A stretch of DNA of 56,802 bases from positions 1-56,802 of IMG/VR virus record IMGVR_UViG_3300042446_001034; one strand, given 5' to 3'. Source of the stretch: a virus (lineage: Duplodnaviria; Caudoviricetes). Of this stretch, positions 10,086 to 31,300 are shown in pieces (position 1 is the stretch's first letter; each line of letters opens with the position of its first letter). Position numbers and translations under genes: made by a program. The notes beneath the pieces were generated by a model. That model saw only the letters and a list, made by a program, of their open reading frames with translations. It ran no database searches and was not told where the DNA came from.

Positions 10086-10090
10086 ACGAG

Positions 10091-10111: not shown

Positions 10112-10118
10112 TATGACT

Positions 10119-13096: not shown

Positions 13097-13104
13097 GTAT
13101 CTGC

Positions 13105-13500: not shown

Positions 13501-13753
13501 TAGATTCCAGGAAGATTATGAGCGATATAGCACAGCCATCGACACCATGCCTGATGGCGCAGTCAAACAGGAATCTCAACAACTGCTGAACAAACTTGTT
13601 GCAGAAATAAAAAAATTAGATAGCATGCACATGGAAATGATCTACAGTCGTCAGCTGCCTACCATGGGCAGTGAAATGAAGCAGGATATCACAGCTATAA
13701 GAAAAAAATTAGAAACTAGAATCAGAGACTGGGCACAGGCGCAGCAAAATTAA
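13475..13753 (+). CDS. Small helical hypothetical protein
   Basis: 92 aa ORF; GGAG upstream. Confidence 0.6.
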   Translation: MSNLLQKSSRFQEDYERYSTAIDTMPDGAVKQESQQLLNKLVAEIKKLDSMHMEMIYSRQLPTMGSEMKQDITAIRKKLETRIRDWAQAQQN

Positions 13754-15312
13754 ATACTAGAGAAGTTTTTAATTACAATTGTGCCTACCATAGCAGCATG
13801 GGCACTACACTGATATCTATAGTTTCCGCTGATACTATCTGGAATCTTCCAATACAACGTTCCCGAATCTTTGCCCTGTGCAGATGATCCTGTAGTCACT
13901 GTGCCTCCTGTGGTAACGTGAACCAGCCCAATGTCATAATTAACGCCCGCATTATTCTGTATCAAGAACGGGTGGCCGGTGGCCTGTAAATTAAATGCTA
14001 TAGTAGTTCCGTTTATGGCATATATTGTAGGATCGTCTGTGGTCCCATACTGATCAAATCTATATGCAGATGCGCCGTTATTAGTCACATTAAGTCTTGT
14101 TATAGCCTGTAGATAAAACTGATCTATAGTAAGATCTGCACGATCGCTTAGTCCGGTAAACGCTGTAGCACCTGCTGATACGGTACTAGTGATTGTCACA
14201 GTGTCTGTGCCAGCATTGGTGGCTAGTGAAATACCAGTGCCTGCTACCAATGTTATTGTATCTCCTGGAGATTCTGCTTCAACACTCGACTGCCCTGCTA
14301 CAGCCAATATACCAAAAGCATTTTGACTTGAGCCCGAGTTAGTAATAGTAATGGTGTCGGTGCTAGCATCGGTTGTAAGTGTTATACCTGTGCCAGCCGC
14401 CAATGTCAATGTATCTGTAGACGAATCCGCTACCACTGAACTCTGCCCCGCTACTGCAATTGTAGCAAAACTATCTGACGCTGTGCCACCGCCTCCAGCT
14501 ACTGTGGCCCACGAGTTATCGCCTCTCAAATAAGTACTGGCACTAGGTGTGCCTGCGGCTCCTATACGACCTATGGGCACTGTGCCTGTGGTCAACTGTG
14601 TGGCGTTGAGTGCAGTGAGATTTGAACCACTACTGATTGGCAGTATAGCAGGAAATCTTGCATCGGGTATAGTACCGGTGGTCAATTGCGTAGCATTCAA
14701 TGCGGTAATACTAGCCCCACCACCGCTGAAGTTGGTAGCAGTGAGTAGCCCAGCATCGCTAATGCTGGCTGAGCTGTTTTTAATAGTTGTGCCACTGGTG
14801 CCACTGTATCTAACTATGGCGTTATCGACATAGCTACCTAACACAGAATTGACATTACCTGAACCAGTACCACTTGAGCCAGGTGGACCTGCTGGCCCAG
14901 CAGGTCCTTGCACTGTGGCTGTGGTTTGAACAGTGTTATCTGGAAATCTCAAAGTTCCCCCTAACACCAGGTTAGGAGTTATGGTTATGGGGTTTGCATT
15001 AGTAACACTAAGGGTAGTATCTACAATTGTGATATTTCCAGTAGAGGCCACAGAAGTCAAAGTCACAGTGTCAGTAGATGCATTGGTTGTGATAGCAATA
15101 CCAGAACCTGCTACTAGTGTTAAGGTATCTGTGGCGGTATCTGCTACCACAGTTGACTGTCCTGCAACAACTAAATTAGTGAAACTAGGCGAAGTTGAAA
15201 GATCGTATCCGCTGCTGATCACATTCCAAGCAGTGCCGTTGTATCGCCACGATTTTTGATCAACAGTATAGACTTCGTTGAGTGCTGGGCTATTAGGAAA
15301 ATTTATAGGCAT
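13750..15312 (-). CDS. Tail fibre protein with repeats, short collagen-like stretch and C-terminal cupredoxin-like domain
   Basis: INFPNSP..N..Y..W.YNGTAW N-terminus; GPAGPAGPPG; TYLRGDNSW; GHPF...YQCSAHAAMVG. Confidence 0.75.
   Translation of the reverse strand: MPINFPNSPALNEVYTVDQKSWRYNGTAWNVISSGYDLSTSPSFTNLVVAGQSTVVADTATDTLTLVAGSGIAITTNASTDTVTLTSVASTGNITIVDTTLSVTNANPITITPNLVLGGTLRFPDNTVQTTATVQGPAGPAGPPGSSGTGSGNVNSVLGSYVDNAIVRYSGTSGTTIKNSSASISDAGLLTATNFSGGGASITALNATQLTTGTIPDARFPAILPISSGSNLTALNATQLTTGTVPIGRIGAAGTPSASTYLRGDNSWATVAGGGGTASDSFATIAVAGQSSVVADSSTDTLTLAAGTGITLTTDASTDTITITNSGSSQNAFGILAVAGQSSVEAESPGDTITLVAGTGISLATNAGTDTVTITSTVSAGATAFTGLSDRADLTIDQFYLQAITRLNVTNNGASAYRFDQYGTTDDPTIYAINGTTIAFNLQATGHPFLIQNNAGVNYDIGLVHVTTGGTVTTGSSAQGKDSGTLYWKIPDSISGNYRYQCSAHAAMVGTIVIKNFSSI
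14185..15185 (-). repeat. Three dispersed ~45-aa repeats plus two ALNATQLTTGT(I/V)P repeats in the fibre gene
   Basis: F..(L/I)(V/A)VAGQS(T/S)V.A....DT(L/I)TL.AG.GI...T.A.TDT.T(L/I)T occurs three times; coordinates approximate. Confidence 0.75.
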
Positions 15313-15336
15313 TTTTTAATCTCTATGGAATATTTA

Positions 15337-17367
15337 TCAACGATTCAGCCGCAATCGCAAACCGCTGTTGATTCTAAGATTGGACAAGATTTTTCTTGAA
15401 CCCGATCTAAATCTAGCATCAATCTGCCCTTGATAAATCACTCGAGCATCGCCTCCTTCGAGACTTTCATAATCCAGCCAATTGGCTGTGTTAGTAGTGG
15501 TTGATTCTGTGCCGAAGTAAAAATCGGCAGCGTCTTGTGTTTCTAGAGATTGCAGCCATGCTTTGACTTCCACCCAGGTCCAGTCTCTATTCCATTCCAA
15601 CACTGTGGCTATAAATCCTGTGGCCACAGGACAGGCAGCACTGGTTCCGCTAAAGGCAGCGTCGGTGGTATTTCCGGAATTGTAACTTAGAGCAGCATAG
15701 GTATCAGGTCTCGGCCAGTTTGTGCCATAGCCTCTATTAGCTGCCAAGGTGCCATCTGCTGGAGCATAAACATCTATGCTGTTCCCCCTATCGCTGTAAC
15801 CAACTTTGGCTTCTTTTGAGGTCTTATAATCGTCATCAAGTGCTCCGATATTGATCACCGGATAAATTACGGCACCAGTGGCATCGGTATATTTGCCGCC
15901 TTGTTGAGGGAATCCTCGGCGATTCGTTGTGCCATATACTGCAACTCCAAACTCACTGAACGTGGAGTTGGCTAAACTTCCGCCGTTGGTGGCGGTAATA
16001 AAATTGTTATAGTCCGGATGACTGCTGTTCACCTGTTTTTGATTGCTGTTACCGGAAGCCGCAACAAAAATCACTCCGGCAGCAATCAATTCATCTTGCG
16101 CTGTGGTCAGTGAATTTGTTTTCATTTCACTTTTCCAACGACCGCCATCTCCCTGTGTGCCCATGTGGCTTAGCCAGTTTATTCCTGTTTCGGTGGTATA
16201 AGCAGTGTTGCTGGTTGACCTATGAGTGTAATAATATGTTGATCCGCCGGGAGCTTTGTCGGATCGATAGCCCCAGCTATTGCTGGTTATTGTGGGATTT
16301 CTAGTGCCAAAGAGAGGATTCACTGGTTTCACGGTATGAAATATTTTCATTATATCAAAGCCCGTTTCTATGCCTGCACCGTAGATGCCGTAAAGATCTA
16401 ATACCCATTTATTGGCATTATAGGCCCAACCTTGTGTTCTTCCGTAGGTTAGTGCAGCACAACAGGTACCGTGATCACCTTCGGTAGATAATGCAGCGTT
16501 GGAGCCATTGCAGTTTGCTCTAGTATAAGCAATAGAAACACCCACTGTGCCTGCATTCGCAAACTGTGCGCTGCGCAGAGCGTTGTTTGACCACCATGAT
16601 CTTGCTACTGACTCTACAGGAACTACGGTGCCGTCCCACCTAGTGATTAATCTCGTGGCAGGATCAGCATTGAACCAATCAGGATCTAGATAATATGGTG
16701 AATCTAGCACCAGATCTAATAGATCACAGGTGCCGTTACCTGGTAGAACATTGCCTCCAACGTATCCACTGGGTTTTGGCACAGCTGCAAACGGACTGGA
16801 ATCAGACAGAGAATTGTTTTGAAATTCTGGATGGCCAATCCAGGTGCCGTCATCTGCAACTATGACATCTATGTGCTTGCCTGTGCCGTATTGTGGAATA
16901 TTGGTATTGACCACTGCATTGTCTGCCAGCGCAGCATCTACCCAAGGATCTAATTTCTGTGTGCATCTATAGAGCTGATACCCAGTTCTGTTGACGTCTG
17001 AGGTATCGGGTGTCACTGCTAGTGTGTTGGAAGCAGCAAATTCTCTATAATTTTTCACCGCAGCAGCATATCTGTTTACTAAATCTGGTCTTACTGAGTG
17101 CAATTCGTCAGGTGGTGGTGTGAATTCAGCATAGCGTTTGTAATCTATGTTGATGAATTTTATTCTTGGATCATTTTTTAACTGCTCTGCTTCGGTGTCA
17201 GTGAGTAGATACGTTCCTCGAGTAGGGCTATGTAATTGATCATCTACACATTCTATTTCTCGAATAGGAACAGATTGATTGACATGTCCTGCCGCAGTTA
17301 GTTCAGCATTTAATTCATCCCACTCTGCTTCAGTATGAGTCGCCAATTGATAATATTTTTTTTCCAT
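15337..17367 (-). CDS. Subtilisin-like serine protease (peptidase S8) with N-terminal prodomain
   Basis: Triad motifs VIVADDG (Asp), DHGTCCA (His) and FSGTSAACP (Ser); oxyanion-hole ASGNSN. Confidence 0.85.
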   Translation of the reverse strand: MEKKYYQLATHTEAEWDELNAELTAAGHVNQSVPIREIECVDDQLHSPTRGTYLLTDTEAEQLKNDPRIKFINIDYKRYAEFTPPPDELHSVRPDLVNRYAAAVKNYREFAASNTLAVTPDTSDVNRTGYQLYRCTQKLDPWVDAALADNAVVNTNIPQYGTGKHIDVIVADDGTWIGHPEFQNNSLSDSSPFAAVPKPSGYVGGNVLPGNGTCDLLDLVLDSPYYLDPDWFNADPATRLITRWDGTVVPVESVARSWWSNNALRSAQFANAGTVGVSIAYTRANCNGSNAALSTEGDHGTCCAALTYGRTQGWAYNANKWVLDLYGIYGAGIETGFDIMKIFHTVKPVNPLFGTRNPTITSNSWGYRSDKAPGGSTYYYTHRSTSNTAYTTETGINWLSHMGTQGDGGRWKSEMKTNSLTTAQDELIAAGVIFVAASGNSNQKQVNSSHPDYNNFITATNGGSLANSTFSEFGVAVYGTTNRRGFPQQGGKYTDATGAVIYPVINIGALDDDYKTSKEAKVGYSDRGNSIDVYAPADGTLAANRGYGTNWPRPDTYAALSYNSGNTTDAAFSGTSAACPVATGFIATVLEWNRDWTWVEVKAWLQSLETQDAADFYFGTESTTTNTANWLDYESLEGGDARVIYQGQIDARFRSGSRKILSNLRINSGLRLRLNR

Positions 17368-17370
17368 GGC

Positions 17371-18480
17371 TTAATGTAGATCTACCCAGGCGCCTCCGGC
17401 ACGTCCTTGAAACTTATTTGTTGTGGTGTTATAGATCATATCGCCGTTGACCGCTGTTAGCAGATCTCTTGCTGCACTTGTAAAAGATGCCATTTTCAAA
17501 GGACTTGCTGTTATCTCTACACGAGTACCAGCCGTTAGTTGTATTTCACTATCTGACAACAGTTCAGGTATTCCTGATCCTTGACTTGAAAAATTGCCAG
17601 TTAACACAATGTCTTTCACTGTCAATTGATTGTTCACTGACAAATTCAATGCAACTTCGACACTGTTATCTATCACAAGATTATTTTGAACTGTGACATC
17701 GGAATCAAAAATTACTGCGGGTGTAAATCTTATTGCAGAAGAATCCGATGAGTCTATAGTGGTCACAGCAAAGGTAATGTTACCTGTGGTGCCGCCGCCC
17801 GTGATCGTGATGTTACCTGAGCTATCAGAGGCTGTGGTGATACCGCCGGCTCCAGTGAATCGAATTGGGCTTCCCGATGTAACTGATCGTAATGTGGAAT
17901 CGTCTGCTTCTACATTTAATACAAATGTCGCGGCCGATACAGCTGAATTGACAAATGCTGTAGAGGCTAATCCAGCCACTGCTGAATTGACAAACCCTGT
18001 AGTGGCGTATCCTGCCACTGCTGTGTTTACATAGGATGTAGAGGCTAATCCAGTCACTGCTGAATTAACATATGATACTGTGGCTAAATTTGTAGTATCG
18101 GGATACGGAGCCACTGGTTGAATCCATTGACTGCTTGACCCGTCGTTGAAATAAACATACAGTATACCGGTATTGGTATCTAACCACAAGTTTCCACTAG
18201 ATGGGGCCACAGGTACACTACTACTTACTGAAACTGTGGTATTTCCGCCACCCCCGCTCACTCCTGCTAAATTAGCCTTGGAAAGAAAGTCTGAGTTGGA
18301 AACGTTGGTTAAATCTGCTTTTGCTAAACTTACACCGCCGACTGTTGATCCGTTGTAAATTCTAAGAGTATTAGCTGTTTGATCGTAAAAAACTTCGCCC
18401 CTTGATCCTGAATTTCTATTTAAAAATCCAGAATCTCTAGGAATTATTCTTACTGCATCGAATACGGGTATTTTGGCCAT
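17371..18480 (-). CDS. Tail fibre-like structural protein
   Basis: GEVFYD....LRIYNG, P..GNLWLDTNTGILYVY and GDMIYNTTTNKFQG fibre motifs. Confidence 0.72.
   Translation of the reverse strand: MAKIPVFDAVRIIPRDSGFLNRNSGSRGEVFYDQTANTLRIYNGSTVGGVSLAKADLTNVSNSDFLSKANLAGVSGGGGNTTVSVSSSVPVAPSSGNLWLDTNTGILYVYFNDGSSSQWIQPVAPYPDTTNLATVSYVNSAVTGLASTSYVNTAVAGYATTGFVNSAVAGLASTAFVNSAVSAATFVLNVEADDSTLRSVTSGSPIRFTGAGGITTASDSSGNITITGGGTTGNITFAVTTIDSSDSSAIRFTPAVIFDSDVTVQNNLVIDNSVEVALNLSVNNQLTVKDIVLTGNFSSQGSGIPELLSDSEIQLTAGTRVEITASPLKMASFTSAARDLLTAVNGDMIYNTTTNKFQGRAGGAWVDLH
17935..18085 (-). repeat. 13-aa (39 nt) tandem repeat, about 4 copies
   Basis: YVNSAVTGLASTS/YVNTAVAGYATTG/FVNSAVAGLASTA/FVNSAVSA; DNA gctgaattgacaaa recurs. 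Confidence 0.8.
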
Positions 18481-18492
18481 ACTATTATTTAT

Positions 18493-19362
18493 TTAAATAT
18501 AACGAATGTTTGATAGATAATTTATGTATTTTTCAACGCCCGTGTTGATTTGAATAAAATTCTCAACGGTTACTCCCGAACTGATCAGCGATTTGGTATC
18601 AGCAAGGGTGTTAATTTGATATTGATTTTTAAGATCAGTTGGCATATCTATGAATTTTTTTGTTCCTGCGCCTGTATGATCTATGATTGTATCCGCAATA
18701 GTTTCAAAATCTACTCTATTACCAGTGCCTAGATCGTAAATTCCGGGTTGATAATTTTTATACATAAAATGGTATATGGTTTTTGCCACGTCTTCTACCC
18801 ATATAAAATCTCTGAAATAATTCTTACTGTTTTCAAATATTTTTATTTCTCCAGTCTTGCTGAGTTGATCAACCCAGTGCAGAATTGAAGAGGCCATTCT
18901 GCCCTTGTGATATTCATTGGGTCCATAAACATTAAACAGTCGAAGAATAACTCCGTCTATTTCATTCTCGCTGAGTAGTTTGCTAAACGCATATTGATTC
19001 ATTGGGCCTTGACCATTGCCGTATACTGCTGCACTTGAAGTAAAAATAAAAGGTATACTGCGTTCTTTACAAAATGTATTCCACTTTCTTGTTGATTGGA
19101 TATTTGAAGCATAAATCGAACTCCAATTTTTTTCTAGAGTATTTGAATTAGCACCGATATGTATCACTCCAGTGATATTTTCATTAGTTAAGTCAACATC
19201 ATCTATTGATAATAGTCTTTTATACTGTTTACCGATCAAGTTTTTATATTGATTTTCATAGGGCAAATCGTCAACTATGAGAATATCAGTTATTTGTTGA
19301 GAATTTAAATACCCTAATACCACACTGCCAATAAATCCACCAGCACCTGTTAATACTATCAT
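18493..19362 (-). CDS. hldD: ADP-L-glycero-D-manno-heptose 6-epimerase
   Basis: TGAGGFIGS, SSAAVYG, YAFSK (YxxxK), FNVYGPNEYHKGRMAS, RDFIWVEDV and L...YQ..T.AD motifs. Confidence 0.88.
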   Translation of the reverse strand: MIVLTGAGGFIGSVVLGYLNSQQITDILIVDDLPYENQYKNLIGKQYKRLLSIDDVDLTNENITGVIHIGANSNTLEKNWSSIYASNIQSTRKWNTFCKERSIPFIFTSSAAVYGNGQGPMNQYAFSKLLSENEIDGVILRLFNVYGPNEYHKGRMASSILHWVDQLSKTGEIKIFENSKNYFRDFIWVEDVAKTIYHFMYKNYQPGIYDLGTGNRVDFETIADTIIDHTGAGTKKFIDMPTDLKNQYQINTLADTKSLISSGVTVENFIQINTGVEKYINYLSNIRYI

Positions 19363-20114
19363 AAAATTTCTTCCAATGACGGAGCATAAACTCCTAGACG
19401 CTGTACGGTCACTGCACTAGCCCGGACCGCAAACTTAATAGCTTGTTCCATGTCTCGAGAATGGATATACCAATAGGCCAGTGCTGCTAAGAATGTATCA
19501 CCGGCACCGCAGACATCGCTGACCTCAACTACAGGTGCTGGAAATATTTTGTTATTCCAGTCTGCACCCTCTGGGCCTAGTGTCACTATCAGGTTACTGC
19601 ATCTGGTTTTAATTTGACTAAATTCAAAACTGTTTATTTTAACTATACATCCTTCTAGTCTGGCTAGGTCTGTTTTCTTTGTATCAACAAAGATAGGTCC
19701 ATCGAATGTGTTACGTAGGTTTTCAATTAGCTCGTAGGTAACAGTGCCTTTGTTATAGTCACTGATCACCACGGCATTATATCCAGTAAGACTGTAAGGA
19801 ATACTAGGAGGTGTTGATACCACATCGTTGTCGATGCGAACAATCTGTTGTTTACTTCTGATATCAATTAATCTAGTCTTTGTGCTATTTTCTCCGTAGA
19901 CAGAATAAACATTACATCCTAATGCTGCTAGATTATTACAGACATTGCCAGCCATGCCGGGTCTGCTTTCTTCGTGACTGAATTTAAATACAGGAACTGG
20001 GGCTTCGGGACTAATGCGATCAACAGTACCGTATTGATATACGTCTGTGCAATTATCCCCTATGAGTAATATCTTGTATTGCTTTGGTTGTTGAGTATGG
20101 TTCAACTCTGTCAT
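19359..20114 (-). CDS. rfaE1: Heptose-7-phosphate kinase (HldA / RfaE domain I, PfkB family)
   Basis: IGD..TDVY.YG.VDRISPEAPVPV, GMAGNV..NL, TKTR, SDYNKG and DVCGAGDTF motifs. Confidence 0.88.
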   Translation of the reverse strand: MTELNHTQQPKQYKILLIGDNCTDVYQYGTVDRISPEAPVPVFKFSHEESRPGMAGNVCNNLAALGCNVYSVYGENSTKTRLIDIRSKQQIVRIDNDVVSTPPSIPYSLTGYNAVVISDYNKGTVTYELIENLRNTFDGPIFVDTKKTDLARLEGCIVKINSFEFSQIKTRCSNLIVTLGPEGADWNNKIFPAPVVEVSDVCGAGDTFLAALAYWYIHSRDMEQAIKFAVRASAVTVQRLGVYAPSLEEIL

Positions 20115-20457
20115 AAAATTTTATCTCTTTACAGTATTCTGCACCTATTATAGGTCTGTCCCGATAGTCACTGCCTTTGACCATTACATCAGGTTTAAAA
20201 CCTTTGATCAGGTCTATGAGTTCTTGATCCGTGTCAAATGTTTCCACTCGATCAACATACTTTAGAGCAAACAACATACTGCATCGTTCGTATTCGGTAT
20301 TAACAGGACGAGCTGGACCCTTTAACTCACGTATTCTGCGATCACTGTCAGTTAACACCAATACATAACTGTCGGGGAAACTTCTTGCATACTGCAATAA
20401 TTTTAAATGCCCTAGATGTATAATGTCAAACGTTCCATTGATCACCACTCGTGTCAT
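20053..20457 (-). CDS. rfaE2: Heptose-1-phosphate nucleotidyltransferase (HldC / RfaE domain II)
   Basis: NGTFDIIHLGH, SDRRIRELKGPARPVN, KPDVMVKGSDY and YSTT motifs. Confidence 0.88.
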   Translation of the reverse strand: MTRVVINGTFDIIHLGHLKLLQYARSFPDSYVLVLTDSDRRIRELKGPARPVNTEYERCSMLFALKYVDRVETFDTDQELIDLIKGFKPDVMVKGSDYRDRPIIGAEYCKEIKFYDRVEPYSTTKAIQDITHRG

Positions 20458-20816
20458 GCTTGACTATTTCCTGGGAAGATTCTAAAATTATCTTCTACCG
20501 AATCAGCTGTGCTTACTTCTACAATGATAGAATTATCCTCTAAGGCTTCAAGCTGATGCGGTAACCCGGGAGGATTGTGCCAGTTATCACCTACATTTAA
20601 TATTTTTTCTTGAAGTTTAGCAGTTGCAGTATCTATATACCTCAAAATAAAACTTCCTTGATTAACGTTCCAACTTTCATCCTTGACTAGATGATAATGC
20701 ATGGAGCATTTTGCTTTGGCTTTTTCAAATACCAAGTATTTTCCGCAGTATTTTTCTGTTGTTGAAAAGATAATTTCATATCCCCACCCCTTTTGTACTC
20801 TTCCATCTAGTCTCAT
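20454..20816 (-). CDS. Cupin protein, mannose-6-phosphate isomerase (type II)-like
   Basis: KGWGYE, YCGK, SMHYH..KDESW, PP..PHQL and EVST.....D.FR motifs. Confidence 0.75.
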   Translation of the reverse strand: MRLDGRVQKGWGYEIIFSTTEKYCGKYLVFEKAKAKCSMHYHLVKDESWNVNQGSFILRYIDTATAKLQEKILNVGDNWHNPPGLPHQLEALEDNSIIVEVSTADSVEDNFRIFPGNSQA

Positions 20817-20902
20817 TTTATTTTATCCCAACATATTTGCATCGTGATTACCAACTCTTAAATAAATGTACACTGTTTTTTACCGGTTATCAATAGAATT
20901 TT

Positions 20903-21529
20903 TTACGCTAATGTGCTGGCAAATTCTGCCAAATTATTGTATATCAGTGTTTTTCTTTTGATCTCTCTATAGGTATACTTTTTTAATTCTTTTTCAGTTT
21001 CTGCACCATAGCCTGTTCTTACTAAAATTGGCCTAGCTCCGATTTTAATTGCTGCTTTGAGATCTTTGATTTTATCACCAACATAATATCCACCTTTGAA
21101 TTTTATAGTCGGATGTTCAGTTTCGCATCTTGTAAACATCCCTGTATTGGGTTTGGCATAGTAGTCTTCTTTGCGACTAGAAGTAGAATAATATATTGCA
21201 TCAATGCTAGGACAGCCTGCTTTGCCCAACAGTTGCAACATATGTTTGTGTGTGGTGTCTACATCATCACTGGTGTATATGCCTTTTTCTATACCACCTT
21301 GATCTGTAATGATCACAATCTTGTATCCTTTGTTTCTCAAAAAAGCCACAGCTTCTAGACTTCCTCCAATTGGATCAAAATCTTCTGGGCGAAAACAATA
21401 TGTTCCAAGGTCTTGATTTATTACACCGTCTCGATCTAATCCAATCACACAACGGTTGGATTCTAACGAAGAGTTAAATGTATTTGCACCAGGATTGATT
21501 GATGCATAATCGATTAAGGATTTACTCAT
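20903..21529 (-). CDS. gmhB: D,D-heptose-1,7-bisphosphate phosphatase (HAD IIIA)
   Basis: LDRDGVIN, ITDQGGI, KPNTGMF, VGDKIKDL and LVRTGYG motifs; ATG at 21529 preferred over the 21571 track start. Confidence 0.82.
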   Translation of the reverse strand: MSKSLIDYASINPGANTFNSSLESNRCVIGLDRDGVINQDLGTYCFRPEDFDPIGGSLEAVAFLRNKGYKIVIITDQGGIEKGIYTSDDVDTTHKHMLQLLGKAGCPSIDAIYYSTSSRKEDYYAKPNTGMFTRCETEHPTIKFKGGYYVGDKIKDLKAAIKIGARPILVRTGYGAETEKELKKYTYREIKRKTLIYNNLAEFASTLA

Positions 21530-21620
21530 TTTTTGTGATCTATAAAAATTTATTACGAAATTTAAACACAATAAATAGTGTCATATTACTTATATCTAGA
21601 ACAACATTTAAAAAAAACTT

Positions 21621-22322
21621 ATGAAAAATTTATGGGTATTTGGAGACAGTTATGCTATTCCTTATCAAAATGATTTAGAATCTCGTGTACATTGGCAATT
21701 TTCATTAATGAAAAATCTAAATTGTGATGGTGTAAAAACTTTTGCGCAGTTTGGGGCACCCAACGAATGGATCTATAATCAATTTACAGAACAATTGCAT
21801 GAAATCACACCAAATGATTTTGTGATTTTTGTTTCCACACAGATAAACAGGAGATGGTTTTTTCCAGATAACGTTGGCTCCTCTAACTTTGCCGTCAGTC
21901 ACAGTGATCTGGCTGATTTATCTAGTGAGCAAAAAACTGCACTGAAATACTACATGACCTATCTTGATAATCCTATCATGTCATTTATAAATTTTGAATG
22001 TCTTTGTAATTCTATACACCGTGTTTCAGAAAAAAATAAAATAAATTTATTAATTCTACCAGGATTTGAACAAAAAGGCTATCCAATCAGCGGGAGATAT
22101 CAAGTCAGCGGATCATTGTTTGACATCTGTGTTAATGAAGTCAAAGGAAAAGATCTAGATTCGTGGTCAAATTTTATTTCTAACATCCACAAGGGGCGTG
22201 ATCCTAGAGTAGGACATCTAAGTCAGGATAACCACGAAATACTAGCAGACAAGTTATCTGCTACTTTTTTAAAAAACAAAATTTTAAATTTAGAGCAAGG
22301 GTTTCGAGAAGAATTTCTCTAG
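21621..22322 (+). CDS. SGNH/GDSL-like protein
   Basis: VFGDSY block I, G.PNEW and C-terminal D.RVGHLS..NH; ATAAATA at 21571-21577. Confidence 0.55.
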   Translation: MKNLWVFGDSYAIPYQNDLESRVHWQFSLMKNLNCDGVKTFAQFGAPNEWIYNQFTEQLHEITPNDFVIFVSTQINRRWFFPDNVGSSNFAVSHSDLADLSSEQKTALKYYMTYLDNPIMSFINFECLCNSIHRVSEKNKINLLILPGFEQKGYPISGRYQVSGSLFDICVNEVKGKDLDSWSNFISNIHKGRDPRVGHLSQDNHEILADKLSATFLKNKILNLEQGFREEFL

Positions 22323-22335
22323 ACCCTTGCATATA

Positions 22336-24162
22336 TTAGTTAATAATCGAAATTAACTTTTGGTATTCTGGAAGATACAAGTATTCTATCTTACTTTGTT
22401 GCAAAGTCCAGAATGCATCTTCCAAGGTTTCAACTAGTGGTTCGCCACCTAGATTAAAACTGGTATTGAAAACTATTGGAAATCCTGTTTCTTCTTTGAA
22501 CTTTTTTATAAGTCTGTAATACAATGGATTTTGTTCTTCATTGACTGTTTGAATACGGCAAGATCCATCAACATGGATAATGCTTGGAATTTTGTCAGCT
22601 ACACCAGGCTTGCAAGAAACTGCATACATCATATGTGGTGAATCATCCATGCCTCGCAGATCAAACCATTCATGTGTATCTTCTTCTAAGATCGAACCTG
22701 CAAATGGACGGAAATATTCTCTACGCTTGACACCGTTGACAAAATCTTTGCCGTCTTTAAATCTAGGATCAAATAACAAACTTCTATTGCCCAGTGCTCT
22801 CGGACCGCTTTCCGATCTACCCTGAAATATAGCAACAATATTTTTTGATGTCAACAGATCAACAATTTCTGCATCATCACATTGTTTAATTTCTGCACCA
22901 TATTTTTCAGCCAACGAACTGATTTGATCTTCAGTGTATGTGTATTTTGGACCGAGATATAGATCGCTGTTGTGTTTTTTATTAGATTCTTCTTGGGTAT
23001 GATAATGCAACAGGGCAACTCCGATAGCAGTGCCACCGTCGTTGGATATTGGTTCAACATACAGTTCAATGTCAAGCTCACGCAGAGTATTTAGGTAGTG
23101 ATAATTTGCCACACAGTTTAACCCGTATCCTCCGCTGAGCACTACATTTTTTTTACCTGTTGCTGTTGCCGCTTTAATAATTAGGTTCAACACCTGTTCT
23201 TGTGTTTCAGTCTGCACCGCATATGCGAGATCTCTGCGATTTTGAAGATAGGTTAGATCGCCATCTGCAAATTCTGAAAGTTCTGTCACAGCTACAACAT
23301 TTACAAACGCTGAGTTTGGATAAGTTGGTATTATGACGTTTCTGTCTGCTAGGTTAAATTCACTAGTATTGTTTAGATTAGTAAACAGTGGTGGAATTTT
23401 TTCATTCTTTTTACCATAGGGAAATAATCCCATGGTCTTTCCTGCTTCGATTGCAGGAAATCCACAATATTCAGTTACAGCTTCGTAGGTTTTTACAATA
23501 CCTGCCCTATCCGACAGCACTGCGGAAAATGTACCTTCTTCTTGTAGAACTTCCCCAGCCTGTTCTACCATATTTACAGGTATGCCATCACGACATCCTA
23601 GATGTTTATAAATTGTTTTAAACTTTGCAGGATATGCGCAATCTATAACCGATTCAACTTCCCACAACAATATTGGTTCACCTCTGAGATTGGCAGGAGT
23701 TGACGAGCCAGCACCATCTACAATAACTGCAACAGCTTCGTCAAATCCGCTGCGATAAAAAGCGCAGGCTGCATGAATTTTATGATGTTGGTGGCTGTAA
23801 TCTATTACCTGCGGGTGATTGTAAATATCCGCTTTTCTATCAATCAATCCAATTTTTCTAGCCAGACCCACATAAATATTATCCCCTGTAAAATCCACTT
23901 TTTGTCCGGTGTGTTCTAGACTCTGTGTATGAGAAATGACCATGTAATCTATTTTATCAGTGTATTCTTTGACTTTTATGATACCTGCATAAGGACCACC
24001 ATCGTATTTGTGCCTGCTTAATCTTTCTTCTTCTAAAGCAAACACTATTTCGCCATCTTTAAGCAAACATACGCCAGCATTATGTCCGCGACTTATGCCA
24101 AGAATATATCCAGTTTTTTCAAGTGTGTTATTTTTTTCGTTCATATTAGTTTGTTTTTTCAA
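22336..24162 (-). CDS. Carbamoyltransferase (NodU/CmcH/TobZ family)
   Basis: EEERLSRHK, HHKIHAACAF, VDGAG, GKTMGL, SGGYGLNCVAN, GPRALGNRS, KRREYFRPFA, HVDGSCRIQTV and NTSFNLGGEP motifs; start may be 24144. Confidence 0.92.
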   Translation of the reverse strand: MKKQTNMNEKNNTLEKTGYILGISRGHNAGVCLLKDGEIVFALEEERLSRHKYDGGPYAGIIKVKEYTDKIDYMVISHTQSLEHTGQKVDFTGDNIYVGLARKIGLIDRKADIYNHPQVIDYSHQHHKIHAACAFYRSGFDEAVAVIVDGAGSSTPANLRGEPILLWEVESVIDCAYPAKFKTIYKHLGCRDGIPVNMVEQAGEVLQEEGTFSAVLSDRAGIVKTYEAVTEYCGFPAIEAGKTMGLFPYGKKNEKIPPLFTNLNNTSEFNLADRNVIIPTYPNSAFVNVVAVTELSEFADGDLTYLQNRRDLAYAVQTETQEQVLNLIIKAATATGKKNVVLSGGYGLNCVANYHYLNTLRELDIELYVEPISNDGGTAIGVALLHYHTQEESNKKHNSDLYLGPKYTYTEDQISSLAEKYGAEIKQCDDAEIVDLLTSKNIVAIFQGRSESGPRALGNRSLLFDPRFKDGKDFVNGVKRREYFRPFAGSILEEDTHEWFDLRGMDDSPHMMYAVSCKPGVADKIPSIIHVDGSCRIQTVNEEQNPLYYRLIKKFKEETGFPIVFNTSFNLGGEPLVETLEDAFWTLQQSKIEYLYLPEYQKLISIIN

Positions 24163-25198
24163 AAATATTTTTTAAAGTTGCATCTAATGGTGTCTTTGGC
24201 AATTCAACTTGAGGAATTCCGCACGTTGTCTGATTTGACAACATAGGTGTACTAGCAGATTCGTTGAATTTTTTTGTCGACTTGCCTAATTTTTTTACTA
24301 TGCCGTCTACTATTTTGTCGAATTCAGAATCTTCAAGGATCATCAAATCTTCATTGTTTCGATCCACTGTGAAATCAGTGGTTATCCTTAGAGGTGAGTA
24401 GGTACGCTTGTCTTTGCCGTTGTCGATGATGGTAAAATCTTTGTTGTTAGGATAACTGATGTTTTGAGGAAAGGTAGAGCCAATGACCACTGTGGCTGGC
24501 TTTTTCAGTGCATGAGCAAAATGCTGTCCAACACTGTCGCAGCCAAGAAAATAGTCTGCTGCATTAATAACGCCCATCCATTGAAGCAGATTAAATTTTT
24601 CTGGAACTATGGCAGGCATGGGCCGCACAGACGGTATGTTAAATGTAGACATCATGACAATACCGTAGTTTTTGCTCAGTTCATCTACAAGTCTGTAGAT
24701 ATCTTTTAGTTCAAAACTTCTACCAGATTCGTCTATGATAAAATTACCTTCTTGTCTAGCACCTGATCCAAACGGTTGAAATACTATGACTTTTTCTTTC
24801 TTGAATTGTTCACGAACATTGTTGATTAAATTATAACCCAGCGCCTGATCAGCTTTGCCTATGGACAAATTGATGTTTTTGGTGTCTGGAACTTCTGATA
24901 AATCGTTTATCAGCATGTCGAATGCTTGAATTAAATTGGCTTTTTGATTGAAATAAGCGTTTAATCGATATGGTTCAGGAGTGACGATTTCTTTGTCTTT
25001 TAATTTATCTCTAAACAGATCTTTCTGCATAATGGAATATACGTTGTTTCTTAGTATATCGCTGGACAAAAACAACTCTAACCATGCTTCGGCTACTATT
25101 ACCACATCACTATCAACTGTTTTCAAATAGTGTTCGAGTGCTGGAATTGCACACAGTACACGTCCGGCTCCTCCATTTACAAAAAATGCTTTTTTCAT
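24146..25198 (-). CDS. Glycosyltransferase family 9-like (heptosyltransferase-like, GT-B fold)
   Basis: N-terminal NGGAGRVLCAIPAL; VFQPFG; FLGCDSVGQHFAHALKKPATVVIG matches the GT9 DS..xH.A.A...P motif. Confidence 0.72.
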   Translation of the reverse strand: MKKAFFVNGGAGRVLCAIPALEHYLKTVDSDVVIVAEAWLELFLSSDILRNNVYSIMQKDLFRDKLKDKEIVTPEPYRLNAYFNQKANLIQAFDMLINDLSEVPDTKNINLSIGKADQALGYNLINNVREQFKKEKVIVFQPFGSGARQEGNFIIDESGRSFELKDIYRLVDELSKNYGIVMMSTFNIPSVRPMPAIVPEKFNLLQWMGVINAADYFLGCDSVGQHFAHALKKPATVVIGSTFPQNISYPNNKDFTIIDNGKDKRTYSPLRITTDFTVDRNNEDLMILEDSEFDKIVDGIVKKLGKSTKKFNESASTPMLSNQTTCGIPQVELPKTPLDATLKNIFEKTN

Positions 25199-25298
25199 CG
25201 ATTACTCCACTGTTATTTTTTAGATACTGAAATATATCTAATATTATATATCAGAGTATCACGGAAGTGAGGGGTAATCTTGGATCGCCGGACGACTG

Positions 25299-25673
25299 TT
25301 AATTTTTAGGAAATTGATCTTTGACTGCTTTTACAGAAGCTATATAGGCATCCCCTTCTGCACCAAGAGAAATCCCTGCTGTTTTTAATGCCAATAAACT
25401 TTTAAAGATGCCGTCTAATTGTTCGTTCGGATCGGGATATACTCGTGCCCGAGTATGTGGCATCACATATTCCACTCCCATTATTGCAGCGGCGTCTGGG
25501 CTCAATCGAACAAATTCATCTAGTTCAATTTCAGTTTCTAAAAACTCCAGCCATTGTTCTTCAGTGGTAATGTATTTGGCTTTGAATTGAACGTTGGGAT
25601 ATCCATCTTCTAGCAGACACTGTCCTGGTAGTCGAGTGCTATACCAAATTTTATAAAATTCAGATTTTGTCAT
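25299..25673 (-). CDS. Tail fibre assembly chaperone-like protein
   Basis: C-terminal R...YP...EQLD...VKAVKDQFPK motif; follows the fibre genes. Confidence 0.6.
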   Translation of the reverse strand: MTKSEFYKIWYSTRLPGQCLLEDGYPNVQFKAKYITTEEQWLEFLETEIELDEFVRLSPDAAAIMGVEYVMPHTRARVYPDPNEQLDGIFKSLLALKTAGISLGAEGDAYIASVKAVKDQFPKN

Positions 25674-25684
25674 GTTTTTTCCTT

Positions 25685-26401
25685 TTATGGAGTAATCCTA
25701 CCGTGTCCTAATATCATCACACTGGTTACGCAGGCAAACGGCTGAGTGCCGCTGGGGGTAGTAAAACACACCGATTTCAAACAAGCAGGGTGACCGCCAC
25801 AGCAGCTATAGCCTTGTCCAGAATTTCTATTACCAATACAGCACCAACCGTCACCGTTATTAGACATTGTGAAACAATAATGAAAACCTCTTTGACTGCC
25901 GTTGCAGACATTGTCTGGCACCATACTCACATGAAAGTTGAAGCCTTGAATAGTGCAGGCTGTGTCACAGCCCGAACTACAGCCAAACGGCCAAGCAATT
26001 GCCCCGGCGCATTGCCAGTTTTCTGAACCGTTCATACACTTTCTGTCTCCGACCCAACCGCAGGCACAATGAGCGCAGCAGTATTGATCAAAATTATCAC
26101 TGCAGGCTCCACCGCAGGCTCCGGCAAATCCAAACGTGGCCTGAGAACAGTAATACTGCCAGTAGCTGGTATGCCCTACAATTTCATATCTGCTAAAAAC
26201 TCCTCGAGAAGAAGATGGTATCACAGCCGACCCATTCCAACATCCATTGCAATTATACAATATGGTTGGGGTGTTAGCGGCCGTAGGGCCGCTAGCACCT
26301 CCACTTGGAAATTGCACATCAAACAATTTGGTGTCAATATACTCTTTTAAAATCCGTTGATTTTCAACGATTGCATTGTAGACTAAAATATCATTACTCA
26401 T
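25685..26401 (-). CDS. Cysteine-rich protein (23 Cys in 238 aa), putative fibre-tip component
   Basis: ORF in the fibre operon; many CC pairs; N-terminus DILVYNAI shared with its neighbour. Confidence 0.7.
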   Translation of the reverse strand: MSNDILVYNAIVENQRILKEYIDTKLFDVQFPSGGASGPTAANTPTILYNCNGCWNGSAVIPSSSRGVFSRYEIVGHTSYWQYYCSQATFGFAGACGGACSDNFDQYCCAHCACGWVGDRKCMNGSENWQCAGAIAWPFGCSSGCDTACTIQGFNFHVSMVPDNVCNGSQRGFHYCFTMSNNGDGWCCIGNRNSGQGYSCCGGHPACLKSVCFTTPSGTQPFACVTSVMILGHGRITP

Positions 26402-26420
26402 ATTATTTCCCTAGAAAAAA

Positions 26421-27428
26421 TTAACACCAACTGACCTTGACCATGCCTGTGCGTCCCCAGTCGCCGTAGCCAATGTTGCCGCCCATCACGTGATTATAGT
26501 TTCCGCCTTGGCCTGGTTGACATCTGTTTCCAGTGCAGGCGCCACCAAAAGCTGCGCCGCAGCAGGTGCCCGAAGTGTATGAGACACAGCATATGGTCGA
26601 TACAGTGTTTGCACAGTTGCCTGGCAACATGGTAGGCTGTGAGCACATGCATCCGTAAAAATTGGTGTCAAACCAATCTGCAGCATACATGCTGGGGATT
26701 ATGATCGGAGTACCCCAGATTGAATTGCCGCAGCCGCCTGTAAAGTAACTGAACTGTCTTGTGATACAAGGATATGCTGAACAGCAACTGATCGAGCAGG
26801 AATTTGAGAAGCAAAAATATGTAGCAGTGCTTGTACAACAGATACAAGCACCTGCTGATTGAGAACATCTAGCCATATATCTACAACAGTTCCAGGCTGG
26901 ATCTCGCTGAGTGGCACGAATCATTTCGTGTAAATTACTGCAGCCGCCATTGGCGCAGAAGTTGCTGAGGCCAGCACCAGTGACAAAACTTTGACATCCC
27001 GAAACATCTCTATCGCAGTGGCAATACGATTGATTGGAATTAGCGGCGCCTGCACACAGCGTGTATACACAGCCTATTTTGGCACTGACAATCAATGAAG
27101 CATATGCTCCTGTGGCACCAAAAGGACTGCCGCTGCAACACATGCCTGGCGAGGTTCCTGCACCAGCACCCCACAGTTCAAATCTCACCTGACTGGCGCC
27201 AGCGGGCACAGTCCAGGCACAACAGGCTCCGTCTCTAAAATATCCACTACCTGAATCATATATGCACAAGGCGTTGGTTGTCTGTAATGATGGTATACAG
27301 CTGGGCCAGTTTGCATACTGTGTAGGGTCTGTCGAAACACTGCCTTGACTGGCAACACCGGATGCCAAGGCAGTTCTTAAATTGTAACTGCCTACTGCTA
27401 TTGCGTTGTGAACTAAAATATCTGCCAT
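26421..27428 (-). CDS. Cys/Gly-rich adhesin-like fibre-tip protein (35 Cys in 335 aa)
   Basis: WTVPAG...VRFELWGAGAG...GAYA...GMVKVSW glycine-rich-domain scaffold; N-terminus DILVHNAI. Confidence 0.72.
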   Translation of the reverse strand: MADILVHNAIAVGSYNLRTALASGVASQGSVSTDPTQYANWPSCIPSLQTTNALCIYDSGSGYFRDGACCAWTVPAGASQVRFELWGAGAGTSPGMCCSGSPFGATGAYASLIVSAKIGCVYTLCAGAANSNQSYCHCDRDVSGCQSFVTGAGLSNFCANGGCSNLHEMIRATQRDPAWNCCRYMARCSQSAGACICCTSTATYFCFSNSCSISCCSAYPCITRQFSYFTGGCGNSIWGTPIIIPSMYAADWFDTNFYGCMCSQPTMLPGNCANTVSTICCVSYTSGTCCGAAFGGACTGNRCQPGQGGNYNHVMGGNIGYGDWGRTGMVKVSWC

Positions 27429-28394: not shown

Positions 28395-31300
28395 TTAGTT
28401 CAAAAAGTAATTGAATGCCAAAGGTATCCCTGTGACTCCGCCTCTGAATTCAAAGTTGGCATTCATTTTAATTGGTGCTAGTGTAGTAGTAGTTATAATG
28501 TTAGAGCTAATAAAAATACTACCTGCTGTGATTGAGTTGACATTCAAACTTGCACCTCCACCACCAATTTGTCCCGCAATATAAGCCTTGATGGCTCGCT
28601 GTGTAGGCACTATGTTGTCTGAATCTGCTGTAAAGAATGGATCTGTGGAGAATTCAGTGATTGTTGCTGATCCACCGCCCAATGTCACGTTGCCCAAATT
28701 AAGTTCTTGCAGTCCTGAAATATTAAATGCATCTGCATTCAGAGTAGCAATACCTGTGCTTTGCTCAATGGCAAACAGATCTCCCACTCGGAAGTTGCCG
28801 TCTTGGTCCGTTGATGTAAAGAACACCCTACCGCCTCCACTATCCACTGCTTCGTTGGCAGCAATAACGGGCTGGGTGCTTAGTCCTGGATAATTGGTTT
28901 CTGCAAAATTGCCTGTGCCTATGTCCAAGAAATCGTGTCCAGTCAATCTAACCTGACTGTATCTAATTCTAGTTTCAACGCTGACTCCGTCTGTCGGAGC
29001 TTCTGATCTAGTCAACTGTGGACTGAGTTGGAAGAATGCTGTGTAAGCACCGTCATTGGTGCCCAAGAATGTGACCACGTTGACCAACTTGAAAGTTCTA
29101 TCAGGTAAATGACTGAACACCACGTTGGCTCCTGGCACTGGTTGAGCACTAATTCTTCTCATGGCCACAAACGAACCTGGTTGGAATAGATTGGAATAAC
29201 CGTCACCGATATCTACCTCACCACTTCCTGTAACATAACCCGATCCCCTGTTAACAAAACTAGGATTGGCCAACACACCACTGCCAGTTCTCACAGTTAC
29301 GGGAGATTCAAATGTGTTGTTGGGATCAGTGAATGTAATAGTTGGTGCTGTGGCATAGCCCGATCCAGGTTCTGTGATATTAACTTGGAACAGTTTTTCA
29401 GCAGCCACTTTGGCACGACCTCTAGCGGTGGCTCCAGTTCTAATATAAGTGGCTACTTGTCCTGTACCATCACCAACTCCTACGAACTGGCCATATCTGT
29501 TTCTATTACCAAATGTGATAGCTGAGAACCCAAGAGCTGCTGCACTGGTGGCTCTTAGAGTCCAGGTAACGCCATCTGGCGATGTTGCTGCTGCTGTGGT
29601 TGTGCTCACAGCAAGAAACACGCCCTGACCGTAAGTCACGCTAGTCCATGATGCTGTGGCTGGTAGTGTGCTGGCTGTCCATGTAATACCATCCAAGCTG
29701 TAAGCAGCTATGGTTCCGCTAGTGTTGGATACAGCAACAAATCTGTTGTTACCGTAGGCAATGCTTCTCCAGTTTGAGCTAGAAGGCAATGTACCTGCAG
29801 TCCATGTGCCTGTGACTGTAGTCGATGTGGCATAATTAGTTACATTAGTGCCGCTCTTAATTGCAACAAATCTATTTTTACCGTAGGCAATAGCTGTGAA
29901 TCCAGTGGTAGTTAGTGTACCAGTTTGATCCCAATTTTCGCCGTCATTGCTGATTCTCACTGTGGTTACATCGCTGCTGACTGCTACAAATTTTTGTGCA
30001 CCAAACGCTACGTCAACCCATGTAGCAGAAGTTCCCATGCTGGTTGCTGTCCAAGTAATACCATCTGAGCTGTATGCACCTGTGGTGTTGGCACTGGTGC
30101 CTGCCACTGCCACAAATTTGCTGACCTTGCCTACAGAAGAGTTATCGTCAAATAGACCCGCAGCCATTGCATCCCAGTTTGCAGCACTAGGCATCAAGCT
30201 GGCTCTTGTATCCCAAGCGATTCCATCTTCTGAAGTTGCACCTACTGTGCTTCCGCTTCTTAGAGCCACATATCTGCCACCTATGCCGTAACCGCTGTGG
30301 TCAAAATCTAAAATAGCACCTGTAGTGGAATTCACTGCGGTGATTGTGATCACTAGATCATTGGCAGTTGTGGTGCCGCCTAGGCTGGTACCTAGTATGG
30401 TTATGGTTTGTAATCTAGCATAACCTGTTCCGGCACCCTGAATAGATGGTATATATTTCCATCCATTACGTATCACTGTAAATGTGGCACCTATTCCTGA
30501 TCCAGCATAAGTGCCTGTAACTGTGGTGTATACCGCAGCAGTTTCACCATATTTTACAGCTCTCCAATCGCCGTTAGTTGGCAGCGTAGCGGCTGTGCTA
30601 GTGTATCCAGGTGCTGCAAATGTTACTCTTGGTTCAATAACATATGTTGAAGAAGCATCTGGTGCTATAATTGCAGTGCCTGCTATCAAATGATCAAATC
30701 CTGCTGTTCCGTCTGATTCTTTAACCAGTCCAGCTACTTTTGTGCCTGAATTATAAGTGGTAATTATTCCAAATTGTCCTACTCCAGCGCCACCTGTAAG
30801 CACAATTTTCATGCCTATGTAGGCAGTGCTGGATTCGCCGTCTGTGGCAGCTATGGTTATACTAGTCAATGTTCCGCCCTGAGCAGTGCTGGCAGCAGTC
30901 TTATAACCAAATCCACCAAGATTTCCTTCGGCCTCAGGAGCATTGGTGCTGTCTTCTATAAGGTCCAACATGCGAACTTCAAACACAGCATCATCACGGA
31001 ATTCATCGGTTTGAACTATAGCTCCTGTGCCGCCGCCAGTGAGCGTATAAGTGACTTCTGTATAGTCAATACCTGCGTTGGTGAATTCCAATTGTATCAG
31101 TGCTGATCCGTCGGTGATAACACGATCAATTTGTGCGTCAAATTGCAGGCGGTTGTCAACTACGGCTGTGCCGGCAGTTTCAGTTGCGTCGAAACCTTCT
31201 GCCACAGAACCAAAATCTCCGTATGAGTTGTTGCCGTTTGTGGCTCGTATTCTTCCACCGTTTTCCGCTAGATATGCAATGTGTGCGTAATAGCTAAACA

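Follow-up and report, generated by a model that had tools for sequence, protein, structure and literature searches.

A candidate fibre-tip glycosylation module among the 'LPS genes' of a T4-like marine cyanomyophage

The role of the genome-enlarging 'lipopolysaccharide (LPS) genes' of P-SSM2-type cyanophages has been an open question since 2005. A cassette of such genes is present in the linear IMG/VR virus record IMGVR_UViG_3300042446_001034, whose entire 56.8 kb were analysed and are here called the window. The cassette encodes a glycosyltransferase (GT), a carbamoyltransferase (CT) and a set of candidate heptose-pathway enzymes, all in the vicinity of two genes for Cys-rich proteins. The question raised by this locus is whether long-known cyanophage 'LPS genes' may serve the virus to decorate fibres of its own. 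Virion self-heptosylation had been proposed in an original prediction made from the DNA sequence. Its enzyme families, folds and gene linkage were borne out here; on the other side, the cassette turned out to be already published and its heptose genes to be loosely tied to the remainder. Our favoured reading, to which we give about an even chance, is that the cassette is a module for O-carbamoyl-heptosylation of fibre tips, placed within the late structural region that this T4-like cyanomyophage possesses.

Linkage of the GT and CT genes to genes for Cys-rich proteins

The gene neighbourhood of the GT was examined in 35 IMG/VR loci, comprising 24 with close GT relatives and 11 with relatives that are about 33-38% identical to the window GT. 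Two distant GT representatives yielded these 11 loci, and queries with three others yielded none. The window proteins served as queries when the loci were annotated by BLAST and jackhmmer, and proteins were counted as Cys-rich if they contained at least 7% Cys or were homologous to such proteins. The CT gene adjoined the GT gene in 33 of the 35 loci, and one to three Cys-rich proteins were encoded in the GT flank in 30 of them; in locus L028, it is a homologue of the 238-aa Cys-rich protein of the window that adjoins the GT. Among the five exceptions, L019, L029 and L046 are cut by the contig end, while L039 and L044 lack Cys-rich genes. The GT and CT genes were likewise found beside genes for Cys-rich fibre-tip proteins, in the same order, in 5/5 GenBank cyanophage loci examined (four named genera plus the unclassified phage Sf-FS3). 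The linkage to fibre genes, whose absence from relatives the original prediction had named as grounds for its rejection, was thus kept.

As many of the loci are near-duplicates, the GTs were collapsed at 70% identity, which resulted in 22 lineages with seven GenBank loci counted. The trio of Cys-rich, GT and CT genes was present in 19 of these, and two of the trio loci (L021 and L033) have a non-T4 gene content. Conversely, all 21 GenBank records with homologues of the Cys-rich proteins were from phages with the GT. Co-occurrence with the Cys-rich genes, which the original prediction had named as a check for the GT, CT and heptose genes, therefore held for GT and CT, whereas the heptose genes were loosely linked. 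Because linkage of the trio is tight and that of the heptose genes loose, the Cys-rich, GT and CT genes appear to be the conserved functional unit. The heptose module represents a portable source of donor and is put to use elsewhere too.

More distant GT relatives were also located in tail modules. As a shorter homologue, the GT occurs in 31 Vibrio phage records, of which D505 was inspected as representative, and in Aeromonas phage HJ05. The GT gene of D505 sits between giant structural genes, and neither the D505-type loci nor that of HJ05 contain CT or heptose genes. The LPS cores of Vibrio and Aeromonas contain heptose, and these loci are consistent with the idea that a phage can do without donor genes if its host makes heptose. 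In L039 (region 9286-14633), from a non-T4 marine phage, the GT gene follows fibre-like genes, one of which codes for 220 aa with 14% Gly and 5% Cys. Next to the GT gene come those for a cupin, a sulfotransferase, a protein resembling APS kinase, an O-methyltransferase of the TylF type and a 2-oxoglutarate (2OG) oxygenase, and then a structural gene; the same arrangement is presumed for L044. Such a swap of sugar-tailoring enzymes at the same tail-module position would agree with a tail apparatus that bears a decorated glycan.

The window itself is a tail-module fragment of a T4-like marine cyanomyophage with a completeness of 16% (CheckV estimate). Its content is almost entirely a T4-like tail and baseplate module, with structural genes for the sheath of the tail and its gp15-like stabiliser, for a baseplate-wedge fibre connector and for two giant fibre proteins. 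At the protein level, the nearest named relatives belong to the Kyanoviridae and are marine cyanomyophages. Identity of the window GT is 58% to those of P-SSM2 and P-SSM5 and 40-45% to those of S-SSM7, Sf-FS3, S-CAM3 and S-CAM1, all of which carry the cassette. Megablast of the cassette against GenBank phages gave no match at the nucleotide level, so that relatives are detected at the protein level alone. The genes for HldD, kinase, nucleotidyltransferase, cupin, GmhB, CT and GT were found where the original prediction had placed them, all on the minus strand (Table 1). Equally, its description of a cassette flanked by two fibre blocks and directly preceded by two proteins with about 10% Cys was confirmed, with fibre families on both sides.

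Table 1. Features of the window, beginning with the GT, CT and Cys-rich genes.
Feature	Position	Strand	Family match or composition
GT9-fold GT-B glycosyltransferase, candidate heptosyltransferase (GT; T4-GC 302, phrog_8954)	24146..25198	-	Glyco_transf_9
TobZ/NodU/NovN-type O-carbamoyltransferase (CT; T4-GC 303)	22336..24162	-	PF16861 1.9e-58, PF02543 5.5e-27
Cys-rich protein 1, 335 aa; N-terminal helix and glycine-rich-domain beta fold (predicted)	26421..27428	-	35/335 Cys (10.4%), 12.5% Gly
Cys-rich protein 2, 238 aa; shorter paralogue with the common N-terminal 'DILVxNA' helix	25685..26401	-	23/238 Cys (9.7%)
HldD-like ADP-heptose 6-epimerase, SDR (T4-GC 308)	18493..19362	-	TIGR02197 E 2.8e-67, 227 bits (cut-off 274.6)
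HldE-domain-I-like heptose-7-P kinase, PfkB (T4-GC 305)	19359..20114	-	TIGR02198 1.3e-42, 146 bits (cut-off 345)
HldE-domain-II-like heptose-1-P adenylyltransferase (T4-GC 304)	20053..20457	-	TIGR02199 2.4e-30, 105 bits (cut-off 181.5)
Metal-binding cupin (T4-GC 307); candidate sedoheptulose-7-P isomerase in place of GmhA	20454..20816	-	
GmhB-like HAD-IIIA phosphatase, 222 aa; candidate heptose 1,7-bisphosphate 7-phosphatase	20903..21571	-	PRK08942 9.7e-38, 129.5 bits (cut-off 178)
Open reading frame (ORF) of 233 aa, candidate SGNH-type esterase (DUF6071-like)	21621..22322	+	N-terminal GDS, C-terminal DNH
Fibre-module accessory protein, 124 aa	25299..25673	-	phrog_2504 (unknown function) 1.2e-12
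Gly-rich protein, 200 aa	27438..28040	-	13.5% Gly; without family assignment
Small fibre-module protein p106, 106 aa	28054..28374	-	phrog_11338 tail fibre 1.2e-9
Giant tail-fibre protein of 2509 aa, with which the upstream fibre block begins	28395..35924	-	phrog_9851 tail fibre E 3.7e-165
Paralogue of the giant tail fibre, 1842 aa	35955-41483		phrog_9851 tail fibre E 9e-154
Downstream fibre/baseplate block: 369-aa fibre-like, 676-aa S8-subtilase-domain and 520-aa baseplate-wedge fibre connector proteins	13750..18480	-	

The same genes in the same order form the P-SSM2 'LPS gene' cluster near phoH (PSSM2_304-313; T4-GC 302-308). Cassettes of this type are found in P-SSM2, S-SSM7, S-CAM1, S-CAM3 and Sf-FS3, and also in P-SSM5. 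They begin with a fibre gene, followed by genes for the 106-aa protein, two to three Cys-rich proteins, GT (302) and CT (303); adenylyltransferase (304), kinase (305), 306, cupin (307) and epimerase (308) follow, before fibre or neck genes. The window differs from the P-SSM2-type cluster in three respects: the small T4-GC 306 protein, of which no homologue was found in the window, is replaced by a GmhB-type phosphatase; an SGNH-like ORF is added on the opposite strand; and the epimerase gene is on the same strand as the others. Since the cassette has been in print as cyanophage 'LPS genes' since 2005 and 2010, it is not a new system. According to the accessible portions of the two papers, the P-SSM2 genes were proposed to alter the host surface (Sullivan et al. 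2005, PMC1079782), and T4-GCs 304, 305, 307 and 308 were reported to co-occur in three phages, with the question whether they are functional or 'stuffer DNA' (Sullivan et al. 2010, PMC3037559). In a search of the open-access literature no paper was found that proposes fibre glycosylation or heptosylation for cyanophage 'LPS genes'. New here are the conserved core trio, the glycine-rich-domain models, the distant GTs in tail modules, the missing GmhA with its candidate cupin substitute, the connection to heptose-less host LPS, and the absence of genes for carbamoylation of 5-hydroxymethylcytosine (5hmC).

Families and folds of the encoded proteins

To characterise the GT family, 383 relatives were collected in a search of 1.8 billion representatives, and 70 full-length sequences were aligned with the window protein. 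Of these 71 family members, 38 matched PF01075 at E<=0.01 (best, 1.1e-9). The AlphaFold2 (AF2) model of the window GT had a pLDDT of 92.7. The top-ranked 11 PDB chains listed for this model were all GT9 enzymes (WaaF, WaaC, Veillonella 3tov and TibC; E 2e-9 to 3e-8), while GT-B folds other than GT9 followed at 2e-6 or worse. Matches in a viral structure library agreed and include phage proteins named RfaF and Aah/TibC. WaaC and WaaF (CAZy GT9) were the best fold matches and also the sole sequence-profile matches in the PDB, at 12-14% identity. In the donor motif D221-S-x-G-Q-H226, D221 and H226 are invariant and S222 is near-invariant among the 71 sequences, which extend down to 26% identity, and in the family profile the motif D-(S/T)-G-x-x-H aligns with residues 248-292 of WaaF and 239-287 of WaaC. 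Asp13 of E. coli HepI is what we take to be the N-terminal catalytic Asp. At its position the phage family has a near-invariant Arg, R13 ('GD' of WaaC pairs with 'GR'), the pairing being located in an N-terminal stretch of the GT-WaaC hidden Markov model alignment that is weak (-2.3 bits).

The GT is accordingly classed as GT9-like, with a GT9 fold, rather than as a proven GT9 member; by the fold alone, lipid-glycan and protein acceptors are not separable. Genome-level co-occurrence points to ADP-heptose as its candidate donor: a heptose kinase is encoded in 9/9 complete or near-complete genomes that bear the GT, namely in all seven named cyanophages and both near-complete IMG/VR genomes. The structure of TibC features an iron-finger Cys cluster and a dodecameric assembly. 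The window GT contains three Cys in all, and no Cys is present among the conserved columns of the 71 sequences; a TibC-type iron finger is therefore lacking in this family.

The Cys content of the two Cys-rich proteins contrasts with that of the other 18 window ORFs examined (0-2.8% Cys). An alignment of 31 homologues revealed a pattern that follows the N-terminal helix (C.WTVPAGV...F.LWGAGG...CCG...G.GAY...PG..YT.C) and ends with G..G.V.V.W. The two Cys-rich proteins of the window had no Pfam match. The AF2 model of the 335-aa protein was moderate (pLDDT 77.8), and its sole Foldseek matches below 1e-3 were the Bxb1 tail tip (9d93_Qa, 1.4e-5) and the fibre of cyanophage Pam3 (7ypx_A, 5.6e-5); the next match was the glycine-rich domain of ALK/LTK. 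The 335-aa protein has the fold and the pattern 'WTVPAGV...GxGG...G.V.V.W' in common with the Pam3 and Bxb1 proteins, at modest TM-scores (0.33-0.47), but differs from these glycine-rich fibres by about 10% Cys that replaces much of the Gly. We therefore model the Cys-rich proteins as putative fibre-tip proteins of the glycine-rich-domain type, in which much of the Gly would have been replaced by Cys.

The start of the CT gene is less than 20 nt away from the GT stop. Both Pfam matches of the CT were over the cut-offs, with 197 bits for PF16861 (Carbam_trans_C) and 95.5 bits for PF02543 (Carbam_trans_N), and the protein is composed of a Kae1-like N-terminal and a YrdC-like C-terminal domain. 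Its closest solved relatives were 7xb6 (7.6e-56) and then NovN, TobZ and GdmN, all four being O-carbamoyltransferases with E from 8e-56 to 1e-45. S-carbamoylation of a C-terminal Cys of the Cys-rich proteins by the CT, as in a HypF/HypE-like system, was set aside as the C-terminal residue varied among 31 sequences (C, N, K, A, G, S and others). Several loci contain two or three tandem CT paralogues after the GT gene (L002, L005, L023, L024, L025-L027, L030 and L046-L049), some of which are short (about 360 aa). The cassettes of S-SSM7 and Sf-FS3 are interleaved with genes for prolyl-4-hydroxylase-type 2OG oxygenases, i.e. protein-modifying enzymes.

HldD, the two HldE domains and GmhB were the best NCBIfam matches for the respective genes, with E values from 1e-30 to 3e-67. 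No match to GmhA (SIS, PF13580) was detected in the window or in five complete genomes of phages with the cassette. The T4-GC 306 proteins, which are named 'phosphoheptose isomerase' in GenBank, had weak HAD-phosphatase matches in Pfam and no SIS match. They are about 110 aa long and start with a DxDGT motif (PSSM2_311 = L001 16030-16374), with homologues in S-CAM1, S-CAM3, S-SM2, S-T4, P-TIM68 and Sf-FS3. In view of the weak HAD-type matches and the DxDGT start, the isomerase name looks wrong. There is likewise no support for 'cysteine dioxygenase', the GenBank name of the cupin T4-GC 307.

The cupin is a candidate for the missing isomerase. Its metal site His-His-Glu-His (H40/H42/E47/H87) is invariant in the family, and eight of ten family members matched MannoseP_isomer and nine of ten Lyx_isomer in Pfam. 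When the family profile was searched against the PDB, lyxose, ribose and mannose isomerases were found at 9e-5 to 3.5e-3, outscored by generic cupins such as oxalate decarboxylase. Chemically, the step from sedoheptulose-7-P to D-glycero-D-manno-heptose-7-P equals that from fructose-6-P to mannose-6-P. Moreover, the cupin accompanied the kinase and the adenylyltransferase in every context seen. Taken with the failure to find a SIS isomerase, the metal site and the isomerase-model matches, this leads us to propose, with odds that we regard as about even, that the cupin acts as a sedoheptulose-7-P isomerase in place of GmhA. In the 98%-complete genome G001, where the heptose module is unlinked to the GT, a class-I methyltransferase gene (Methyltransf_24, 2.5e-7; L037 8708-9262) is inserted between those of cupin and epimerase, and no phosphatase is recognisable in that module.

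A proposed route to carbamoyl-heptose on fibre tips, and its alternatives

According to the favoured fibre-tip reading, sedoheptulose-7-P from the Calvin or pentose-phosphate pathway of the host would be converted to D-glycero-D-manno-heptose-7-P, probably by the cupin. The HldE-I-like kinase would phosphorylate this compound at C1, the GmhB-like HAD enzyme would remove the 7-phosphate, and adenylylation by the HldE-II-like transferase followed by the action of the HldD-like epimerase would yield ADP-L-glycero-D-manno-heptose. The cytoplasmic GT9-fold transferase might then heptosylate newly made Cys-rich fibre-tip proteins, which are encoded immediately upstream. Finally, presumably after this transfer, the TobZ-type CT would O-carbamoylate the sugar with carbamoyl phosphate and ATP.

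The cassette is best described as a variant of phage virion glycosylation combined with GT9-type protein heptosylation, an interpretation that is unproven. In the tibC-tibA and aah-aidA pairs, a gene for a GT9-type protein heptosyltransferase lies beside that of its own substrate. The phage GT resembles TibC and AAH in its GT-B/GT9 fold (TibC was among the best structural matches; E 1.8e-8, TMq 0.57), in the position of its gene beside that of a putative surface-adhesion protein, and in the presumed donor ADP-heptose. It differs in that no sequence similarity was detectable (phmmer with the single GT sequence gave no PDB match) and in its candidate acceptor, a fibre tip with a glycine-rich domain in place of a beta-helical autotransporter. 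In mycobacteriophages, phage-encoded glycosyltransferases reportedly modify the phages' own structural proteins, a finding attributed to Freeman et al. in 2023; that system is said to involve other glycosyltransferase families, hosts and sugars. We know of neither a phage-encoded donor pathway nor carbamoylation in mycobacteriophage virion glycosylation.

Several observations weigh against O-carbamoyl-heptosylation of fibre tips. No virion protein is directly shown to carry a glycan, and gene neighbourhood alone connects the GT with the acceptor proposed for it. Virion proteomes cited in the accessible portion of PMC3037559 (S-SM1, S-PM2 and Syn9) are all from phages without the cassette. The window GT is just below the gathering cut-off of PF01075 (E 1.3e-4; 21.8 bits, cut-off 22) and lacks the canonical catalytic Asp; its donor could therefore be another nucleotide sugar. 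All four heptose-pathway assignments score under their equivalog cut-offs (Table 1), which indicates that these genes are divergent. In addition, 13 of the 24 closer loci have heptose genes in the GT flank. These genes were absent from a flank of at least 5 kb in L014, L015, L021, L027 and L033, and in G001 they are located in the replication region, about 30 kb away from the GT. They also occur without this GT in S-SM2, S-T4, P-TIM68, Sf-CH5 and Sf-CH8. In the three of these that were inspected (S-SM2, S-T4 and P-TIM68), they are part of large polysaccharide-like clusters with annotated glycosyltransferases near hli genes, and heptose must therefore have at least one other fate. Finally, late-promoter-like ATAAATA motifs precede flanking fibre genes and not the GT gene.

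The last-mentioned clusters, remote from fibre genes, are among the arguments for remodelling of the host surface, in which GT and CT would put carbamoyl-heptose on host LPS or another envelope glycan during infection. Superinfection could thereby be blocked, adsorption of progeny to debris prevented or recognition by grazers altered. GT9 enzymes are classically heptosyltransferases of the LPS core, WaaF and WaaC were the top fold matches of the GT, and the accessible portions of Sullivan et al. 2005 (PMC1079782) and 2010 (PMC3037559) name these genes LPS genes. Nevertheless, we regard this explanation as rather unlikely. The accessible portion of a review (PMC4515613) describes the LPS of Synechococcus WH8102 and CC9311 as containing neither heptose nor Kdo (3-deoxy-D-manno-octulosonate), and WH8102 is the host of the cassette phage Sf-FS3; on this account, at least one cassette phage infects a host that lacks the acceptor classically used by GT9 enzymes. 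Further, an Arg occupies the position of the HepI catalytic Asp, GT and CT are tied to Cys-rich genes in the great majority of lineages and in several phage types but not to other 'LPS' genes, and the GT relatives of Vibrio and Aeromonas phages reside in tail modules without other envelope genes. Host LPS remodelling, an alternative already entertained in the original prediction, is thus weakened by the composition of the host LPS and by the fibre linkage.

Less probable still is that the cassette yields a free or lipid-linked carbamoylated heptoside, or that the GT is a non-catalytic assembly factor for the Cys-rich tips. All of the named closest solved CT relatives (NovN, TobZ and GdmN) tailor small molecules, the GT has no canonical base, and the 124-aa accessory gene also closes fibre modules without a GT. 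Against these options stand the invariant donor-motif residues of the GT, which argue for retained catalysis, the lack of other natural-product genes in the window, and the co-occurrence of the donor pathway in all nine complete or near-complete GT-bearing genomes. T4 glucosylates its own DNA, and DNA hypermodification, with the CT carbamoylating 5hmC and the GT glycosylating DNA bases, had likewise been listed as an alternative in the original prediction. In support of it, a phage-encoded enzyme of the TobZ/NodU family, to which the window CT also belongs, makes 5-carbamoyloxymethylcytosine (Yang et al. 2021, PMC8670742, accessible portion). The same portion of that paper, however, describes such CTs as co-occurring with thymidylate-synthase-like hydroxymethylases and deaminases, both absent from the cyanophage cassette; the CTs of unmodified contigs were flanked by other genes, for instance those of glycosyltransferases. 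No thymidylate-synthase-like protein (PF00303) was found in the window or in 5/5 complete cyanophage genomes with GT and CT, and Tet_JBP (TET, PF12851) was over the cut-off in none of these five genomes, with a single weak match of 15 bits. GT and CT are, moreover, encoded in tail modules and not in nucleotide-metabolism modules. With the genes required for 5hmC carbamoylation absent, DNA hypermodification is very improbable.

A wider version of the fibre-tip reading can be put forward tentatively and with more doubt than its core. In this version, phrog_8954 would be a widespread phage enzyme that glycosylates glycine-rich fibre tips together with interchangeable tailoring enzymes, i.e. O-carbamoyltransferases in cyanophages, and a sulfotransferase plus an O-methyltransferase in L039-type phages. 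Cyanophages of heptose-less hosts would bring along a self-sufficient ADP-heptose pathway in which the cupin replaced GmhA without shared ancestry. The outcome would be self-decoration of the virion with O-carbamoyl-heptose on disulfide-rich receptor-binding tips.

The tight association of GT and CT with Cys-rich genes, together with the lack of the classical acceptor in at least one host, makes the question testable on cultured phages. If fibre-tip glycosylation is true, a glycosylated receptor-binding protein would for the first time be on record for marine phages, and no earlier phage would be known to supply its own nucleotide-heptose for glycosylation of such a protein. Some auxiliary metabolic genes that are regarded as host-directed would then need to be reclassified, and a new isomerase for heptose biosynthesis would be indicated.

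Other genes and sequence features of the window

Homologues of p106 were encoded upstream of the Cys-rich genes in many related loci. The 124-aa protein had been labelled a fibre chaperone, for which no confirmation was obtained, its sole family match being phrog_2504; its homologue in S-RIM8 closes a fibre module that has no GT. Skipped in the original prediction was the 233-aa ORF on the plus strand within the cassette. It had no Pfam match and no homologue in the related loci L001-L034 (blastp, E<=1e-4), and in a language-model atlas search it scored 0.96-0.97 to viral clusters annotated as 'SGNH hydrolase-type esterase' or DUF6071. This ORF may encode an additional esterase or an enzyme for O-acyl tailoring of the sugar.

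The T4 late-promoter core TATAAATA was found in 0 copies in the whole window (3.7 expected), and ATAAATA was not enriched (10 copies versus 13.6 expected). The latter motif occurs just upstream of three gene starts, at 15312, 18480 and 21621, the last one 44 nt before the 233-aa ORF. Scans of the window for sigma-70 promoters and terminators gave background levels. Between positions 18000 and 26000, the enzyme genes have a GC content of 0.33-0.41 as compared to 0.44-0.50 in the flanking fibre and Cys-rich genes, and this AT-richness suggests that they were acquired separately as a block.

In the downstream block, the 676-aa protein (15337-17367, minus strand) contains a subtilase domain (Peptidase_S8, E 3e-20). 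Its gene sits between those for the 369-aa fibre-like protein and the baseplate-wedge fibre connector, and its C-terminus shares phrog_9158 with the adjoining 520-aa protein. The 676-aa product could be a tail protein that cleaves itself or degrades the envelope.

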